This document shows positions 1 through 6,278 of a DNA stretch of 30,262 nt, piece by piece. Where the stretch lies: positions 1 through 30,262 of the IMG/VR virus record IMGVR_UViG_3300008255_000350; one strand, given 5' to 3'. Position 1 is the first letter of the stretch. Every line of letters starts with the position of its first letter. The notes below the pieces were generated by a model. It saw only the letters and a list, made by a program, of their open reading frames with translations, had not been told where the DNA came from and searched no databases. Source of the DNA: a virus. Taxonomy: Duplodnaviria > Caudoviricetes. Position numbers and translations under genes: made by a program.

Positions 1-392
1 ACCTCCTCCCGGCCGGTGTTGATTGCCGCATCCAGGCGCTTGTTCTCTTCTTCTTCCCGCCTGCGCCGCTCTTCCTCCCGCCTGACCCGCTCTTGCTCTG
101 TCAGGTAATCTGACATCTGCTTTTTTACAAGGCGCTCAGCTTTTGCAAGTGGGGACCTGAAGCGGTCTATCTCAATTACGACAGCTTTTCTCTTTTCCTC
201 TGCTGCGCGCTTTAAGTCCTGCGCCTCTTTCAGCGCGGGATCAAAGTGTTCCTCCACCAACTTGACCGTTTGTTTGCAGGCGACAAGGAGCCGGTTCGCT
301 TCATCGAGTGAGCCCTGATCCCTGACCGTGACCGACTGGAGATTGGCGACGACTGATTCAACTGTTTTTTGGAGATCTTTCTTTTCTGTCAT
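1..392 (-). CDS. Partial phage coiled-coil protein (MTEKKDLQKTVESVVANLQSVTVRDQGSLDEANRLL...), runs off the left edge
   Basis: Read manually, not in the ORF track. ATG at 392 overlaps the recT stop (ATGA); open to the window edge; E/R-rich coiled coil (EQERVRREEERRRREEEE). Confidence 0.75.
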   Translation of the reverse strand, partial: MTEKKDLQKTVESVVANLQSVTVRDQGSLDEANRLLVACKQTVKLVEEHFDPALKEAQDLKRAAEEKRKAVVIEIDRFRSPLAKAERLVKKQMSDYLTEQERVRREEERRRREEEENKRLDAAINTGREE

Positions 393-1192
393 TCCGCCGC
401 CACCTCATAGTCTCCGTCGATGGTGTCGAGGTTCAGCTCCGGGTCGTCGGGATTGATCCGGTAAGCGCGGTTGTCGGCGCTTGCGGCGGTGGCGATCTCT
501 ACAGACTTGGGGGCGTAGCGTAGCAGGTCGATCATCACGGTTTTGCACGCCATCTGATCGAAGTTCGTCTGCCAGGGGCCAGAGGCGAAAGACTTGCTGT
601 ACTGCTTTGCGTGCTTCTCGACCTTATCCCGAGACCACACACGGAAATCATAACCGCCGTTAGTCAGCTCATACTGAGCGTAGAAAAACACGGTATTCCC
701 GGTCGGGGTTTTCGATGGGTCGTGGATGAGCTTCGGATTCAAGCCGTATGAGTATTCAAACGTGTCCGCCTCATCCACTGCCATGGCAGTCAGCCTCCGG
801 TACTGCCCGGTTCGGTGCGCAAGGTCAACGATCCCCTTGTACCCCATCTGAAACTGAGCATCTACGCGGCCGAGCTTCCGGTTCTCATACGGGATTATGT
901 AGCACTGCCCGAGGGGTGTATTCGGTTCGAGTCCGAGCTGCGCCGCCTGCATGATTGACCACATGAGAGAGAGCGCGTCAGCCTGTCCGAGCTTCGGGTT
1001 GTTCCTGACGGCGGTCAGGGCGACGCGGGCAAGTCTCTCGGTTGTGACATGCTTCGGGAGCGCCTTCTCGAGCTGTGGCTTGAGCCTTTCGATCATTGCG
1101 CCGATACTGTCGCTTTTTTTCGCGACAGACTGCGGCTTGCTGTTCGTGGTGGCGGTATTTTTTCCGGCCTCTTGTGTTCCGTCTGCTTTCAT
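389..1192 (-). CDS. recT: RecT-family single-strand annealing recombinase
   Basis: Motifs ALPKHVTTERLAR, AAQLGLEPNTPLGQCYIIPY, QFQMGYKGIVDLAHR, PWQTNFDQMACKTV; AAGGAG RBS; next to a YqaJ exonuclease. Confidence 0.93.
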   Translation of the reverse strand: MKADGTQEAGKNTATTNSKPQSVAKKSDSIGAMIERLKPQLEKALPKHVTTERLARVALTAVRNNPKLGQADALSLMWSIMQAAQLGLEPNTPLGQCYIIPYENRKLGRVDAQFQMGYKGIVDLAHRTGQYRRLTAMAVDEADTFEYSYGLNPKLIHDPSKTPTGNTVFFYAQYELTNGGYDFRVWSRDKVEKHAKQYSKSFASGPWQTNFDQMACKTVMIDLLRYAPKSVEIATAASADNRAYRINPDDPELNLDTIDGDYEVAAE

Positions 1193-1201
1193 GTTTTCTC
1201 C

Positions 1202-2176
1202 TTAAATGATCTTCACGGACATACGTCCGCTCTCTGTTAATCCGACCCGGTGGTGATCTGTGACCCCATACCGTGACCGGCCCATAGCCTGGATTATCTT
1301 TTGCTTGACCTTCTCGCGTTCGTCGGTCCGGTCGTCAATCTCAACCTTGAGATCGATGTACCGGAGGATGTCGTTCTCATACCCTGAGAGGTCGATTGTG
1401 GTATCATCCGAGAAAGCCCGCTCCTGCATGAGAGCGTCATAGTCGGCATCCGATCCACCAGGGAGTGGGAAGTAAAGCGGGTCGTTCATCTGGATGATTT
1501 CCCACAGGTCAGCCTCGGCGGCGTTCAGACGTGAGATAAACTCATCGTTCCGGGTGACGATTCTCAGCACGCGGATATTTCCGATGAGTCCGAAAGTCCA
1601 CCATTCATCAAGGCCGGTCCCTGCCATGTAGTGCTGATCTTGGCAGTAGTAGGGGTCAGGTAATTCGTCCCCATCTTTCCCGCCCCAGTTCTTCAGCTGG
1701 TAGGATGATCCGGTCTTGATCTCAAGACCGACGGTTCTGGCCTTCGGCTCCATCTTCATCCCGTCCGCTCCGAGTGATAGTTCTGCCCGGTCGCATATGT
1801 TCAGGAATCCATCAGGATTGATAATCTGCCACGGTCTCTCTATATTTCTGTACATGTGAGTCGGGTCCATTACCTGTACTTCGATTCCGAACTGATCCCT
1901 GACGAACGGCGCTACCATCTCCCGGCGGATAAACGATTCAAGGATGTTTCCGACCTGGATTACTTCTTTGTCCGAGATATCCGGGGGCGTGTATCTCCCG
2001 GTCTTTTCCATGCAGACTGTCAGGGGTGAGCCGTAATCCGACATCCCCATGCAGGCGGCGGCGTCTGATCCTCCGATACCTTGCCGCCGGAGGGCAAGCC
2101 AATCCTCATGGGAAAGATCTGCGTAGGCTGCGATGGGGGTGCATTCGGGGAGGTTAATCATTTTCCTGCTTTCCAT
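1202..2176 (-). CDS. YqaJ-like viral recombinase / lambda-type exonuclease (start may be 2161)
   Basis: WLALRRQGIGGSDAAACMG, NPDG, LEIKT, PDPYYCQDQHYM motifs; upstream of recT. Confidence 0.92.
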   Translation of the reverse strand: MESRKMINLPECTPIAAYADLSHEDWLALRRQGIGGSDAAACMGMSDYGSPLTVCMEKTGRYTPPDISDKEVIQVGNILESFIRREMVAPFVRDQFGIEVQVMDPTHMYRNIERPWQIINPDGFLNICDRAELSLGADGMKMEPKARTVGLEIKTGSSYQLKNWGGKDGDELPDPYYCQDQHYMAGTGLDEWWTFGLIGNIRVLRIVTRNDEFISRLNAAEADLWEIIQMNDPLYFPLPGGSDADYDALMQERAFSDDTTIDLSGYENDILRYIDLKVEIDDRTDEREKVKQKIIQAMGRSRYGVTDHHRVGLTESGRMSVKII

Positions 2177-2423
2177 TCTTCACATGGTTAACAGGAACGA
2201 ACCCTCTCTTTTTGTTAAAACGTGAACGAGCTATAGCATTCTTAACCGTTCTTGCAACAGTCCGCTTAAAAATCTTGATACCGAGAGTGCCTTTCATTGT
2301 GGGGTTGGCCACTAGTGTCTCGGTTTTCTTCTTTGATCGATTATAGACTGCCTTTTTTTTACCGGGCTTACTCCCGCCGAAACAGCCTCTTGCTGATTGC
2401 GCTTTTTTCTTATTTCCGTTCAT
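2154..2423 (-). CDS. Small, very basic (Lys/Arg-rich) hypothetical protein
   Basis: 89-aa ORF with AAGGAG upstream; overlaps the next gene start; no recognised domain. Confidence 0.6.
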   Translation of the reverse strand: MNGNKKKAQSARGCFGGSKPGKKKAVYNRSKKKTETLVANPTMKGTLGIKIFKRTVARTVKNAIARSRFNKKRGFVPVNHVKNGKQEND

Positions 2424-3196
2424 CCCCTGCTCTCCTTAAAATTGCCCGGCGGCGACCTCTTTAACTTCTCCGCCGGGCGAGACTATGGCGTACACTATCG
2501 CTAATTCAGACCTTGCCTCCCCTTTGCTGGCGCATAAGCAACCATTTGATTTTTCACCCATACGGGCTATGGCGCCCGCCGGAATCGAACCGGTCCGCGG
2601 TAGGTCGCCAGCCTACGGGCCCAAAGTTGCCACCTGATTCCCCGGTGGCCCGGTAGGCAATACCCTTTAATCGTGCAGATTCTGCCTATCACTACACGAC
2701 GATCTGGTTTCTACCAGCAATACCCGGTTTCTACCGGCAATAGTCAGCCTCTTCTGACATTACAACCTTTAAGGGTTTAACCAGTGCCCGGGCACTCGAA
2801 CCCGGTGTGTGCCCCGACCCTCGCACCTCTCCACGGGAAACCGCCTCTACCCTTTGCAGCCTCACTGGTTGGCACGTTTAGCTTTGCATGGAAGTTGCCA
2901 GTCCATTGTGCCGGGTACGTCTCCGGCGCGGGGCTTTCACCGCTCGTGGTGCCGTTTTAACCCGTCAACGGGCTATACAGGGCGACGGGAATCGAACCCG
3001 CCGGAGGCTGCTGACCCTCCTGCCTTTCCCTGTAGGCGGAAAACGATAGAAAACCGCCAAGTATAAGATACGGCAACGCCGTTTGTCGGCAGCTGGGGCA
3101 TGATCCCCGCTTCTGCGGTGCGTACTCTGTTCCGCTTCCGCGCCCCTGGCAGGGAGCTTACTGCACTCCTGGGACCGACTGCCGTCTTTCCGGCTG
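2424..3196 (-). ncRNA. Putative structured RNA region with several tRNA-like (closing stem + T-arm) modules
   Basis: No credible ORF; dense hairpins; GGTTCGATTCC T-arms in 2570-2622 and 2976-3034, GGTTCGAGTGCC in 2779-2870; no complete cloverleaf found. Confidence 0.6.
2703..2742. repeat. Tandem 20-bp duplication, each copy a hairpin
   Basis: TCTGGTTTCTACCAGCAATA / CCCGGTTTCTACCGGCAATA; two of the three differences form a compensatory stem pair. Confidence 0.85.
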
Positions 3197-3487
3197 TCAA
3201 AAAACATTCTCCTTGACGTCCATGACGCTACGCGCCACAAGAAGGTTCTGACCTCGTGAAACAAGATTCCTGATCATTCCTACCTGCTCAAGTCTCAATT
3301 CCTCCCCAGGCTTCTTAACCTCGATCCACCAGAGCGAACCATGCCTGCTGATTACCAGAAGGTCCGGTGTCCCCGGAGGGCAGAGCCGGATATTATTCCG
3401 CGCCCTGCCGGAGTTCAGCCGGAACACTAAGAATCTGTTCAGCTCCAAGTATTCGACTATCTGCGCTTGGATTTCTGATTCGGTCAT
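3197..3487 (-). CDS. VRR-NUC domain (PD-(D/E)xK) nuclease, 96 aa
   Basis: MTESEIQAQIVEYL...GTPDL...WIEVKKPG...EQ. Start reassigned to ATG 3487 (AAAGGAG RBS); the longer track ORF merely translates repeat array C. Confidence 0.88.
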   Translation of the reverse strand: MTESEIQAQIVEYLELNRFLVFRLNSGRARNNIRLCPPGTPDLLVISRHGSLWWIEVKKPGEELRLEQVGMIRNLVSRGQNLLVARSVMDVKENVF

Positions 3488-3500
3488 TTCGGTCTCCTTT

Positions 3501-3586
3501 GCCTGCCTTGCCCTGCCTTGCCTTGCCCAGCCATGCCTTGCCATGCCCTGCCCCGCCTTGCCTGCCACGCCCAACCTAACCGGGCC
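3501..3586 (-). repeat. GGY-NN pentamer array C (18 GGY triplets)
   Basis: Minus strand: GGC cc GGT ta GGT tg GGC gt GGC a GGC aa GGC gg GGC ag GGC at GGC aa GGC at GGC tg GGC aa GGC aa GGC ag GGC aa GGC a GGC; fills the intergenic gap. Confidence 0.95.
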
Positions 3587-3588
3587 TG

Positions 3589-4065
3589 CTAAACCGTGAC
3601 GGCCTCGCGCGCCATGTCGAGATGGTGCTGCGCCGTGTCAAGTTCTACCTCTGCGAGATAGCGGTAAACCCTCGCCTTCCGCGACAGCTCCCCGATTGAT
3701 TCCTTGATCTCCCCGAGGATCTGCTTCCTCATGTCTTTGTCGCCGAGAATTGTCCTCGTCGGCATGTACTGGCGCTGATTGTCCACGATGACGGATTCGA
3801 AAGCGCGGTATTCAACGTCCGCTCTGTCCTGGTATTCGTCTACCGTTACGATCCCGCGTATTACCTGCCCAGCTTCCTGGATTCTGTGGAGCCGGGCCGC
3901 TTCCGCGTCGTCCCACGTGAAACACTTATGCAGCTCTGTCTCTTCATCCTCCGCGAAACTGACGATCTCCTCAGGAATCAGTGTTCCGATACTTTCCAGC
4001 TCTTCCCCGATGAGTTCAGCATTTGCCTTGAACCGCGCCCCGCTTTTCCATTTGTAAACGCCCAT
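3589..4065 (-). CDS. Conserved phage hypothetical protein, candidate partner of the RAMP-like protein
   Basis: 158 aa, AGGAGG RBS; motif PEEIV...ELHKCFTWDDAEAARLHRIQEAGQVIR resembles a phage family I recall as LHxxFEWDDxxAAxxYR; flanked by arrays B and C. Confidence 0.8.
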   Translation of the reverse strand: MGVYKWKSGARFKANAELIGEELESIGTLIPEEIVSFAEDEETELHKCFTWDDAEAARLHRIQEAGQVIRGIVTVDEYQDRADVEYRAFESVIVDNQRQYMPTRTILGDKDMRKQILGEIKESIGELSRKARVYRYLAEVELDTAQHHLDMAREAVTV

Positions 4066-4111
4066 CGTTTACCTCCTGTAATGTGTTCGGTATCGCCTAT
4101 GGCTACCGATT

Positions 4112-4162
4112 GCCTGCCCTGCCATGCCGGGCCTTGCCATGCCGCGCCACGCCTTGCCTGCC
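4112..4162 (-). repeat. GGC-NN pentamer array B (11 GGC triplets) followed by a hairpin at 4087-4109
   Basis: Minus strand: GGC a GGC aa GGC gt GGC gc GGC at GGC aa GGC cc GGC at GGC ag GGC a GGC, then TCGGTA-GCC-ATA-GGC-GA-TACCGA. Confidence 0.95.
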
Positions 4163-4173
4163 AAGCGGCGGCG

Positions 4174-4764
4174 CTACTGCGCCACCACCTCAAAACGTCC
4201 GAATGTTCCGTCTTTCTCAGGCCGCCATTCTCCGACACCTACGCCGTACCCGGCAGCGTGGAGCATATTGACGATCTGATCAAAAGACGTGATTGAGCTG
4301 TTGTAGCTTATGTTCAATTCAGCTTCCCAGCCGACGACCTGGCCCCGGAATCGTATGTCGGCGGTTGCGCCGTTCAGCCGGACCATATCCTCCCGGGGGT
4401 GGACCTCGCCCTCTACCGGCACAAGCTCCCGATCGTCGCGGGTGCAATACTCGCCATGAACGAAAAACGATGTCCGAGCGTCGGTCATTACAAGGCCGAT
4501 CTGCTTTGCGCCGCGGATCATTGCCTTCTTGAAAGCATCAGCTGGGAACCCGAGCCTGTCGTCGTCGAGCCGGTACACGCTGGCTTCGTACTGTTCTTCC
4601 GGTGACTTCGCTTCTTTTTTGACAGTTTTTTTCATTTGCTTGTCGAGCATTTCCTTCCGCGCCTTCTCGCTCCATCGGTGCATGATGAGCGGGGAAAGCC
4701 CCTTGATCTTGATTGTCGCCGTCTCCACTTTGATCTTCTGAAGTTCTGCCGTTTTGGTAGCCAT
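4174..4764 (-). CDS. Solo RAMP / Cas7 (Csm3)-like RNA-binding protein, 196 aa
   Basis: RAMP signatures in the right order: IKIKGLSPLIMH (cf. L-x-T-x-SPLHIG), LGFPADAFKKAMIRG (cf. IPGSSLKGALR), C-terminal Gly-rich loop GYGVGVGEWRPEKDGTFGRFEV; TAAGGAGG RBS. Confidence 0.75.
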   Translation of the reverse strand: MATKTAELQKIKVETATIKIKGLSPLIMHRWSEKARKEMLDKQMKKTVKKEAKSPEEQYEASVYRLDDDRLGFPADAFKKAMIRGAKQIGLVMTDARTSFFVHGEYCTRDDRELVPVEGEVHPREDMVRLNGATADIRFRGQVVGWEAELNISYNSSITSFDQIVNMLHAAGYGVGVGEWRPEKDGTFGRFEVVAQ

Positions 4765-4855
4765 TTGCTACCTCCTTACTGTGTGTTACCGCGTTGTCAA
4801 CGACTGCGGTATAAGACGCCGGGGAATTGCACCCCGGTACGCTTACCGTCTTTTT

Positions 4856-4916
4856 GCCTGCCTTGCCTTGCCCAGCCATGCCTCGCCTCGCCGTGCCCTG
4901 CCCCGCCTCGCCTGCC
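4856..4916 (-). repeat. GGC-NN pentamer array A (13 GGC triplets) followed by a T-loop-like hairpin at 4815-4850
   Basis: Minus strand: GGC a GGC ga GGC gg GGC ag GGC ac GGC ga GGC ga GGC at GGC tg GGC aa GGC aa GGC a GGC. Confidence 0.95.
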
Positions 4917-4921
4917 ATATC

Positions 4922-5035
4922 CTACCGCCTCACAAGCTCCTCGCCTGCCTTCTTCTGCCAGTAGATCGCGCTTTGTATCTTGCCAGCTTTCAAGAACATC
5001 AGGGAGAGCCGGAGAAACCTGTCGTACTTGCTCAT
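4922..5035 (-). CDS. 37-aa hypothetical protein (MSKYDRFLRLSLMFLKAGKIQSAIYWQKKAGEELVRR)
   Basis: Below the track cutoff; ATGA overlap with the upstream ORF, GAGG RBS; stops 5 nt before array A. Confidence 0.6.
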   Translation of the reverse strand: MSKYDRFLRLSLMFLKAGKIQSAIYWQKKAGEELVRR

Positions 5036-5226
5036 CGTATGACCTCTTCGAAAACAAGCTGACTATTGACGTTCAGGAATTGTTCAAAGGTCTCAGCCGG
5101 GTGGTACCCCGTAATCTCCCGGACTTCCTTCTGATCGCACCCTTTCAGCTTCAAGCGTTCGGTCTGCCGGTAAATTATTCCGAGTTCGTTTATCGGGCGG
5201 GGTGAGGGATTTTCAAACATCTTCAT
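5032..5226 (-). CDS. 64-aa hypothetical protein
   Basis: ATGA-coupled on both sides; GGAGG upstream. Confidence 0.65.
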   Translation of the reverse strand: MKMFENPSPRPINELGIIYRQTERLKLKGCDQKEVREITGYHPAETFEQFLNVNSQLVFEEVIR

Positions 5227-5384
5227 GAGGCCTCCGGGCGGTTTGCCTGTTCCATCGATTCGACATGCTCCTCAAGCATGATTTCAACCTGCTTCGTAAA
5301 CGAACGCCTCTCGCGCTGTGCGATCTCAAGCACCGTATCGGCTATTCGTTTATCCATCGATATTGTCTTTGTTATCCTGTCCAT
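5223..5384 (-). CDS. Ribbon-helix-helix (Arc/CopG-like) regulator, 53 aa (MDRITKTISMDKRIADTVLEIAQRERRSFTKQVEIMLEEH...)
   Basis: Read manually; alternating N-terminal beta strand, helix, then A-x-x-E-x-R-S-F-x-x-Q-V pattern typical of Arc-like proteins; first gene after a promoter. Confidence 0.75.
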   Translation of the reverse strand: MDRITKTISMDKRIADTVLEIAQRERRSFTKQVEIMLEEHVESMEQANRPEAS

Positions 5385-5390
5385 ATGATC

Positions 5391-5428
5391 AGTATACACC
5401 CTTTCAAAACATTGTCAATTTTTTTTTT
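5391..5428 (-). promoter_or_regulatory. Strong sigma70-type early promoter
   Basis: A10 tract directly upstream of TTGACA (5418-5413), 16-nt spacer, TATACT (5396-5391), then 6 nt to the ATG at 5384. Confidence 0.8.
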
Positions 5429-6278
5429 GCGAATTATTGATATTTAATGAATCAATGAATTCTGCGTCGTCGACCTGGCTGTGGTCATAGAATCGCTTTG
5501 TCACCCTGATATCGGCGTGCCCCAGCTCTTCAGATGCTTTGGAGATTCCCAGGCGTTCAGAAAGAAGTGTTCCCCGGCAGTGCCGTATCATGTGGGCCGA
5601 TGTCCGTTTACCTATCGTCCGCTCAGCGTGGCGCCGGATGGCGGTTGTGATGTGCATCCTGTCGTATGGGGCGCCCCTGTGGTCGAACAGGTATTTCTCC
5701 CCGGAGAAGTATTCCACGATTTTGTCATAGAGTTCTGCCGTGCACCTTATGGTCCGCTCTTTGTTCCCCTTGCCGGTTATGCGGATGTAGCAGAGTTCCC
5801 CGGATCGCCTCACATGCCGGTGCTCAGTCCAGAGCGCCTCGGATATCCGGCAGGATGATTCCCAGAGGAAGCGGATAATCAGGGCCAAGTGTCCCGGGGC
5901 CGTTTCGATCAGCTTTGCCACCTCTTCGGGGGTCGGCACCGCGTCGGCCTTCTTGATACCTCCGTGCTGCTTCTTTGACTTGAGCTTGCCCAGGGCCCGC
6001 TCAACCTTGAACCGCTGCGCCTCGGTCATGTCCGAGTTGTCGGCGGCTATCCTGATTGCCTGCTTGATCGCCTTCAGGTGCTGGTTGTAGGCGGCGGCAC
6101 CCAGGGTCAGCTCCCGGAGATAGTGAGAAGCCCCTGACACGATGTCATGCCCTGATTCCTCCAGATACTTCTGATACCGGATTACCGCGTGCCGGTACTG
6201 CTTGTTGACCATGTTTTCAAGGCGTGACTGAGGAAGCCCGCCAGCGCCTACCAATTCCCGATTGTTACCCTTTGGCAT
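5415..6278 (-). CDS. Tyrosine recombinase (XerC/D-like, no arm-binding domain)
   Basis: Catalytic set: CRISE (R), GKGNKER (K), HMIRH (HxxR), LGH, FYDH (Y); 287 aa; GGAGG RBS. Confidence 0.92.
   Translation of the reverse strand: MPKGNNRELVGAGGLPQSRLENMVNKQYRHAVIRYQKYLEESGHDIVSGASHYLRELTLGAAAYNQHLKAIKQAIRIAADNSDMTEAQRFKVERALGKLKSKKQHGGIKKADAVPTPEEVAKLIETAPGHLALIIRFLWESSCRISEALWTEHRHVRRSGELCYIRITGKGNKERTIRCTAELYDKIVEYFSGEKYLFDHRGAPYDRMHITTAIRRHAERTIGKRTSAHMIRHCRGTLLSERLGISKASEELGHADIRVTKRFYDHSQVDDAEFIDSLNINNSQKKN

Follow-up and report, generated by a model that had tools for sequence, protein, structure and literature searches.

A cassette of T-arm-bearing mini-modules in the leftward early operon of a phage carrying a Vipr-like gene

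The stretch of DNA analyzed here (hereafter, the window) comprises 30,262 nt of a Caudoviricetes record (IMGVR_UViG_3300008255_000350), which is linear, 30.3 kb long, and an estimated 73% complete. A protein family scan revealed a lambda-type terminase and portal, a Mu-like capsid, a contractile tail, and an integrase-family gene (5415-6278). The stretch is present in an aquifer run, which may be its source, and in a cold-spring run; one RNA run had no contig on it, an outcome that says nothing either way. Starting at a strong promoter-like site, the leftward early operon passes three tracts of GGY/NN repeats along with genes for a Vipr-like protein and an accessory protein, continues through VRR-NUC, and beyond a gap of 773 nt holds a basic orphan ORF, yqaJ, and recT. 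The site at the operon head is sigma-70-like (5391..5418, minus strand), an assignment that is a consensus match only (11/12). The Vipr-like protein (196 aa; 4174..4764, minus strand; PHROG 4652) matched the SUSP1 Vipr PDB chain in a phmmer search (E 2.5e-4), and the accessory-type gene (158 aa; 3589..4065, minus strand) also follows vipr in locus L001. The VRR-NUC nuclease gene (3197..3487, minus strand; Pfam PF08774) bounds the gap with its stop codon. The orphan ORF directly after the gap (89 aa; 2154..2423, minus strand) belongs to no family and matched only itself; it is very basic and might encode an RNA-binding protein, for which no support was found. Its likeness to the RNase P protein, seen by eye, was dismissed, given no family, no homologue, and atlas matches below 0.8. 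Downstream of the gap lie the YqaJ exonuclease (1202-2176, minus strand), whose closest named relatives are members of the Spirochaetia, Marispirochaeta (58%) and Oceanispirochaeta, suggesting that the phage host is likely a spirochaete, and RecT (389-1192, minus strand). A single YqaJ query found no related viral locus, and a YqaJ alignment query returned 80 distant loci (28-40% identity), none of which carried the gap's contents by short-word BLAST. No close relative of this phage was thus found.

The gap, at 2424-3196, is the largest in the window between credible genes. The original prediction described it as ORF-poor, but six ORFs do overlap it: two on the minus strand (99 aa, 2965-3264; 75 aa, 2973-3200) and four on the plus strand (50-85 aa). 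The possibility that a short ORF is translated across the gap draws on the 75-aa frame, the TTG start of which overlaps the VRR-NUC stop codon and has AAGGAG upstream; however, a search made with the 75-aa and 99-aa frames returned no Pfam family and no homologue for either, and we regard this reading, jointly with that of an attP core taken up below, as extremely improbable. As predicted, three modules consisting of a T-arm and a closing stem around a non-tRNA interior were present on the minus strand, accompanied by trailers behind module i (TAGCCCGTTGACGGGT) and module iii (TAGCCCGTATGGGT) and by all the other hairpins that had been named. A scan for T-loop hairpins counted 3 in the 773-nt region, whereas 75 of 5,000 dinucleotide shuffles contained one and none contained two or more. 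In each module, the T-arm and the closing helix form a stack of 11-13 bp in total.

ARAGORN detected 0 tRNA genes and no tmRNA in the window, and the best Rfam match, to tRNA-Sec, was sub-threshold (25.8 bits for module i and 17.1 bits for the stretch ending in module iii, against a cut-off of 47); therefore, the modules are not tRNAs. They carry a T-arm with a TTCRA loop on an acceptor-like stem, without a cloverleaf with a D-arm and anticodon arm or an above-cut-off score. A D-loop-like loop bearing GG and the acceptor/T-arm stack are kept, while the D-stem, a normal anticodon arm, and an encoded free CCA are lost. The proposed tmRNA- or YrlA-like domains likewise failed to match in Rfam, and no Ro60 or DUF3800 gene was recognized among the 19 window proteins scanned. 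Sub-threshold Rfam matches to Zeta-pan, DUF2693-FD, and RAGATH-36 (E 3.9-7.6) were treated as chance.

A further suggestion, that a single large ornate RNA of the GOLLD or ROOL kind takes up the whole 770 nt, fits the size and phage context of those RNAs as given in PMC5737381 and 10.1101/2024.12.08.627333, and ROOL and GOLLD adjoin related mini-modules in L084 and in phage Weiss13, respectively. However, the region matched no GOLLD, ROOL, tmRNA, or YrlA model, folded only slightly above its shuffles as a whole (z -1.35), and was covered to a maximum of 7% by any record in a BLAST search of 50,697 phage and 72,556 plasmid records. Its pieces recur singly, in unrelated phages and in different neighborhoods. 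Because no record matches the whole length and the pieces are found separately, the gap looks like a mosaic cassette of mini-modules and spacer hairpins; a single large RNA appears very unlikely, ranking only above the short-ORF and attP readings.

Module i (2976..3034, minus strand) combines a 7-bp closing stem, a D-loop-like AAAGGCA, a 5-bp hairpin, and a 6-bp T-stem with a TTCGATT loop and a bulged G. This structure is the minimum-energy fold both alone and in context, where the T-stem reaches a probability of 0.9, and the D-loop-like loop falls within the top 0.25% of window 7-mers under a loop profile derived from actinophages, a profile that gives no support for modules ii or iv. No full-length homologue was found for module i; the sole match to its pattern, L292, was rejected as having the same frame around a different interior. 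In Rfam, the module aligns weakly, below threshold, with the 3' half of tRNA-Sec, and 22 nt of it are identical to the attP-region sequence of mycobacteriophage L5 and its relatives, which we take to be the 3' half of tRNA-Gly. The presence of the integrase-family gene could suggest that module i is an attP core; however, its 3' end, CCCTGTA, is unlike that of a tRNA and pairs with its own 5' strand, and the module lies 2.4 kb from the integrase gene.

Module ii (2779..2870, minus strand) is the least certain of the set. It comprises an 8-bp closing stem, a 57-nt interior ending in GGCACACA, and a 5-bp T-stem with an 8-nt loop and a bulged G, but this arrangement is not the minimum-energy fold, with in-context probabilities of 0.04 for the T-stem pairs and 0.0 for the closing stem. 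No full-length homologue was identified; an exact pattern of its 5' part gave 0 viral matches, and a looser pattern gave 47 loci in metagenomes, one of which (L274) is the same phage. The other loci were rejected as chance coding matches or PyrR elements (RF00515 in 2 of 20 scanned). In runs X1 and X2, deeply covered contigs from other organisms matched the window only at 2847-2912; part of this stretch resembles a PyrR binding loop, probably by chance.

Module iii (53 nt; 2570..2622, minus strand) has a 7-position acceptor-like stem, a hairpin with a CTGGCGA loop, and a 4-bp T-stem capped by TTCGATT. It lies 5 kcal/mol above the minimum-energy fold, with in-context probabilities of 0.03 for the T-stem and 0.0 for the closing stem. 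The predicted CCA is present at its end but includes the last paired base of the stem, so that no free tail exists, and it is replaced by GTCT and GCGG in two homologues. A pattern made from the two loops of this module matched 13 viral loci: two close homologues (L231 and L238), eight copies of a related mini-module of the L232 type (including one identical duplicate type), another related module (L243), and a tRNA-Leu-like gene (L241). In an alignment of three rows (the window, L231, and L238, both found by this same pattern; L241, L243, and the eight L232-type loci were left out), pairing holds in 38 of 39 cells and both sides differ in 3 of the 13 pairs, a level of covariation reached by 22 of 500 shuffles. 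A G.G mismatch at position 2 of the stem is kept in the homologues. In L231, the module stands directly after a stop codon and is enclosed by a longer stem (z -3.8); in L238, one pair is broken and the module possibly lies within the end of a short ORF. These comparisons are suggestive only, but they point to conservation of module iii with compensatory changes across three unrelated contigs. In the genome collection, a pattern for module iii returned 1 match, an apparent antisense of a gatC-like gene that was rejected as chance. An unannotated tRNA in Bordetella phage IFTN2 (L225 2043-2116; Rfam, 64 bits) has acceptor ends resembling those of module iii. A 49-nt mini-module with a GCTGGCG loop and an TAGCCCGT trailer was seen upstream of ROOL and tRNAs at L084 1661-1709 (minus strand) and in the L232-L242 type.

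The spacers between the modules are themselves structured. The cassette opens with the hairpin GCCG-GAAAGA-CGGC (3176..3199, minus strand; z -5.1), look-alikes of which were noted by eye in L069 and L112, and closes with a long G+C hairpin before the next ribosome-binding site (2444..2478, minus strand; z -2.95). Two tandem GGTAGAAACC hairpins also fold at 2704..2737 (minus strand). A weak promoter-like site just before module i (3060..3089, minus strand; 9/12) is at chance level, with 2 such sites found against 1.7 expected. Module i is followed by a trailer hairpin (2959..2975, minus strand; z -3.4) and then by a 49-nt twin hairpin with GGTGAAAGCC and GAGACGTAC loops (2910..2958, minus strand), which is conserved in phage tRNA/tmRNA clusters. 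This motif is 48/49 identical in L230 and is conserved in L227/L229, L228, phage P1, and Bordetella phage IFTN2. It lies 4-6 nt upstream of tRNA-Asn in P1 and of an Rfam tRNA in the Bordetella phage, where, as in the window, it stands upstream of recombination genes (exoVIII-recT). Of the 54 cells aligned for its stems, 53 are paired, and a single change is compensatory. In L227, the motif is found near a tRNA and a phage-borne permuted tmRNA (692-1084, minus strand).

The trailer TAGCCCGTATGGGTGA behind module iii (2554..2569, minus strand) recurs in other phages, where it lies 3' of tRNAs or of tRNA-like genes. A T-loop followed by TAGCCCGT was found at 85 loci representing 43 distinct contexts, 13 of which continue with NNGGGY, compared with approximately 0.3 expected by arithmetic. 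Ahead of this hairpin, ARAGORN calls a tRNA in 8 contexts and Rfam alone a tRNA-like gene in 2, while the remaining 3 have a T-arm element called by neither, and ROOL is present in one of the trailer neighborhoods (L084). Modules iii, with the same trailer, and i, with a longer variant, show the 11-12-nt spacing seen in 8 of the 13 contexts, a placement that fits their occupying the slot used by tRNA genes before the trailer hairpin.

Such occupied tRNA slots, the poor folding of modules ii and iii, the 22 nt shared with the L5 attP region, and the weak tRNA-Sec likeness of module i would all be expected if the modules were relics of a phage tRNA cluster, now in decay and without a function. 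However, the closing stems have been re-formed around deletions, module iii shows near identity and compensatory changes among three unrelated contigs, and the 49-nt motif is retained at 48 of 49 positions in another phage, all of which makes decay quite improbable, though we place it above the single large RNA.

A fourth, more compact module was detected outside the gap, between the first repeat tract and vipr. Module iv (40 nt; 4813..4852, minus strand) consists of a 6-bp closing stem, a 9-nt loop, and a 6-bp stem with the T-loop variant TGCAATT; it is the minimum-energy fold (z -2.4) and ends 48 nt before the vipr start. The adjoining tract (4857..4927, minus strand) is the first of three guide-like GGY/NN tracts, the others lying at about 4108-4178 and 3492-3582, and its repeat code is that of VIPR guides in 10.64898/2026.04.26.720920. 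The same preprint describes structured 3' tails on VIPR guides and hammerhead ribozymes in some arrays, so module iv, which follows the first repeat tract, resembles the latter in being a potential processing element beside a guide RNA. Thus, module iv could be a candidate guide tail or processing site, in what is a single case. The word "tRNA" is absent from the main text of the two VIPR preprints searched (10.64898/2026.04.26.720920 and 10.64898/2026.10.15.759431).

In contrast, the cassette has no general link to VIPR. Neither the cassette nor a compact module was present in any of 58 other vipr loci, on either strand, and 3 compact matches within those loci proved to be tRNAs or tRNA ends. 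Locus L001, the Vipr of which is 85% identical to that of the window, lacks the cassette and places the system among head genes; at L001 1601-3560, the VIPR locus, with long repeat arrays, sits between the terminase and portal genes. In the window itself, the strong promoter at 5418-5391 and the lack of any minus-strand terminator-like site within 2100-5600 make the predicted co-transcription of the cassette with the array system plausible from layout. A near-identical phage contig in run X2 joins 3496 to 4859, so that vipr and the accessory gene are missing and the cassette is kept. The join links the first repeat tract to the third and may reflect either a genuine repeat-to-repeat deletion or an artifact of assembly; pieces carrying vipr are also present in that run, at lower depth.

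Through a weak BLAST match between module ii and Streptomyces phage Yosif, we arrived at a 40-nt element repeated in gaps among the early genes of actinophages, which consists of a 5-bp stem, an 11-nt loop with an invariant GG, and a 6-bp T-stem with a 7-nt T-loop. Five actinophages were examined, comprising Yosif and stretches of Oaker, phiHau3, Weiss13, and Neville, in which 9 (in right-arm gaps), 8, 5, 14 (13 used), and 1 copies were counted, respectively. Across the five, the copies lie at L293 18901-23826 (minus strand), L294 7383-13696, L295 1876-6680, L296 7996-8039, and, in Weiss13, L297 693-8045. A BLAST search with one copy found 717 places in 149 phage records at E <=1, some of them short or chance matches, and the phages bearing the element infect Streptomyces, Mycobacterium, and Gordonia. 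The 28 copies that share one length are paired at every one of 308 cells, partly by construction because the copies were chosen by a stem scan, and both partners vary in 10 of the 11 pairs; the GG of the loop, the T-loop, and the C just after it are invariant. The element has no anticodon-like arm at all and no Rfam match. Looser mini-modules, five or six in number, occur one per short-gene gap before a repeated ribosome-binding motif at L243 450-1962 and L307 1483-1523, and some of the L243 copies contain an inserted hairpin, as module i does.

Within the window, the strict actinophage model (R1) gave partial matches only, in modules ii, i, and iii, with the loop and T-arm of module ii scoring 17.5 bits; modules i-iii thus are not members of the strict 40-nt family. 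They share with the element a frame of closing stem, GG loop, and T-arm, and the first seven loop bases of module i equal those of one Weiss13 copy, but they contain inserted hairpins or bulges and are followed only by frames of 9-21 codons rather than by genes. Module iv equals the element in length and in its 48-nt spacing to the next start, with a 6 + 9 + 6 architecture and a variant T-loop. A second model (R2), built from 18 modules of other phages, some of them found with patterns taken from modules i and iii, ranked modules iii (25.2 bits), i (21.9 bits), and iv (19.5 bits) first to third in the 30-kb window and module ii fifth (13.5 bits); the same model scores the 3' halves of ordinary tRNAs at 14-21 bits and sets module i in the wrong closing frame.

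The placement of the actinophage copies bears on whether the modules are uncut cis elements, that is, compact elbow-like structures to which a host or phage factor binds or which impede nucleases, stabilizing or antiterminating the early transcript and setting the translation of the next gene. Of 35 copies, 30 end 35-60 nt upstream of an annotated start (median, 46 nt), while the distance to the previous stop is variable; module iv shares this position, and one Yosif copy is preceded by what appears by eye to be a promoter-like sequence. Against such a role, modules i-iii precede no genes and occupy a slot of tRNA genes, and we consider it unlikely, although the least unlikely of the alternatives to the reading that follows.

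That reading, to which we assign about an even chance, is that the modules are tags for RNase P/Z-type processing, by which small stable RNAs would be released. It is favored by the retention of the acceptor/T-arm stack and the GG, by the precedent of RNase P substrates, and by the frame shared with T4 rnaC. The host, as a likely spirochaete, would be expected to possess RNase Z. Hairpins composed of an acceptor stem and a T-arm are RNase P substrates, measured by a 12-bp ruler from the T-loop, and the phage M3 and C4 RNAs are listed among such substrates in PMC11143913. Counting against the reading are window stacks that, at 11 or 13 bp, miss this ruler, the lack of a free CCA, the low in-context pairing of modules ii and iii in energy models, the three-sequence basis of the module iii covariation, and the searches that gave no full-length homologue of module i or ii. 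Under this model, the early promoter would transcribe the cassette together with the early operon, the GG loop is predicted to dock on the T-loop to form a tRNA-elbow-like fold, and host RNase P would cut the 5' ends of the modules, with RNase Z or exonucleases cutting their 3' ends. RNAs of roughly 50, 60, and 90 nt would be released along with spacer RNAs, and the downstream yqaJ-recT message would gain a new, protected 5' end. The original prediction had spoken of processed tRNA mimics, the mimic part of which fits the comparative evidence, namely, the compensatory pairs of module iii, the tRNA slot before the trailer, and the rnaC precedent.

Released modules might instead, or in a compatible second step after processing, act as decoys that titrate tRNA-targeting defense enzymes, engaging them by acceptor arm and elbow and not by an anticodon. 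The early-operon position beside a conflict system (VIPR) is consistent with this, and PMC5389517 places irregular tRNA polycistrons near toxin-antitoxin loci. One reading of the module iii loop is as a 7-nt anticodon loop, but it also fits the D-loop-like GG motif (top 1-2% of 7-mers, weak support that depends on the chosen register). The specific proposal of decoys for anticodon nucleases is weak because what is conserved is the D-loop-like GG and the T-arm rather than an anticodon arm, which the 40-nt relatives lack, and because CCA is not conserved. We judge decoys in general to be improbable, ranking them after cis elements.

The elbow and acceptor stack kept in these stripped-down modules, set against the anticodon arm and CCA that were dropped, points to processing or elbow binding rather than decoding. 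The cassette is a real feature, a variant of tRNA-framed phage small RNAs, and the 40-nt minimal element hints at a wider class, apparently absent from catalogues. A broader and more tentative idea, which we hold possible yet doubtful, is that a portable minimal tRNA elbow of ~40-60 nt provides RNase P/Z punctuation of early transcripts across several host phyla, dividing them into single messages and small RNAs, with module iv freeing a VIPR guide, the window holding a clustered form, and the actinophages a one-per-gene form. If RNase P/Z did cut the tags, few natural punctuation signals would be smaller, and the tags could serve as a compact means of releasing multiple RNAs (multiplex release); if punctuation is their role, they would form an uncatalogued RNA class approachable in cultured phages such as phiHau3 and Oaker. 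The repetition of the 40-nt element in cultured actinophages makes the question testable at the bench.

In the literature searched, outside of which most subscription papers lie, neither the modules nor the 40-nt element was described, and no role was found assigned to T4 rnaC or to odd non-coding stretches of phage tRNA clusters. The available portion of PMC4324244 does not mention repeats like the 40-nt element, and six of nine supplement files of PMC10690425 contained none of the six motifs. Because many tRNA-like candidate RNAs of phages are reported in PMC10690425, the class may be among its alignments or in the supplement of PMC5737381. GOLLD and ROOL are likewise phage non-coding islands near tRNAs, but the window's cassette is mosaic and matched no covariance model, although the same search recovered ROOL in L084 and GOLLD in L297 and neither in the window. 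The GOLLD RNA of mycobacteriophage Weiss13 (L297 13312-13771; 187.6 bits) is unannotated in its record. The allo-tRNAs and irregular tRNA polycistrons described in PMC5389517 resemble the cassette in their tandem irregular genes, 4-bp T-stems, and weak tRNA-Sec likeness, but they form full cloverleaves with a long V-arm and an anticodon arm, whereas the window modules lack even a D-stem.

Of the known RNAs, T4 rnaC comes closest. The tRNA-like domain of tmRNA, YrlA, and mascRNA have an acceptor-like stem, a T-arm, and a D-loop-like GG, with no normal anticodon arm; the window modules differ in having no tag ORF, no G3-U70, and no free CCA. T4 rnaC (species 1 RNA), which lies within the T4 tRNA cluster and bears the annotation "small, stable RNA," is presumably made by tRNA-processing enzymes; T4 rnaD, another small stable RNA of that cluster, has no T-arm in its fold. 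T4 rnaC is 139 nt long with long AU-rich hairpins, whereas the window modules span 40-92 nt and have unlike interiors, and its cluster encodes true tRNAs, of which the window has none. The window's cassette does carry spacer motifs of phage tRNA clusters. What the modules have in common with rnaC is a closing stem around a non-tRNA interior and a T-arm, the latter being CCGGG/CCCGG at the 3' end of rnaC.
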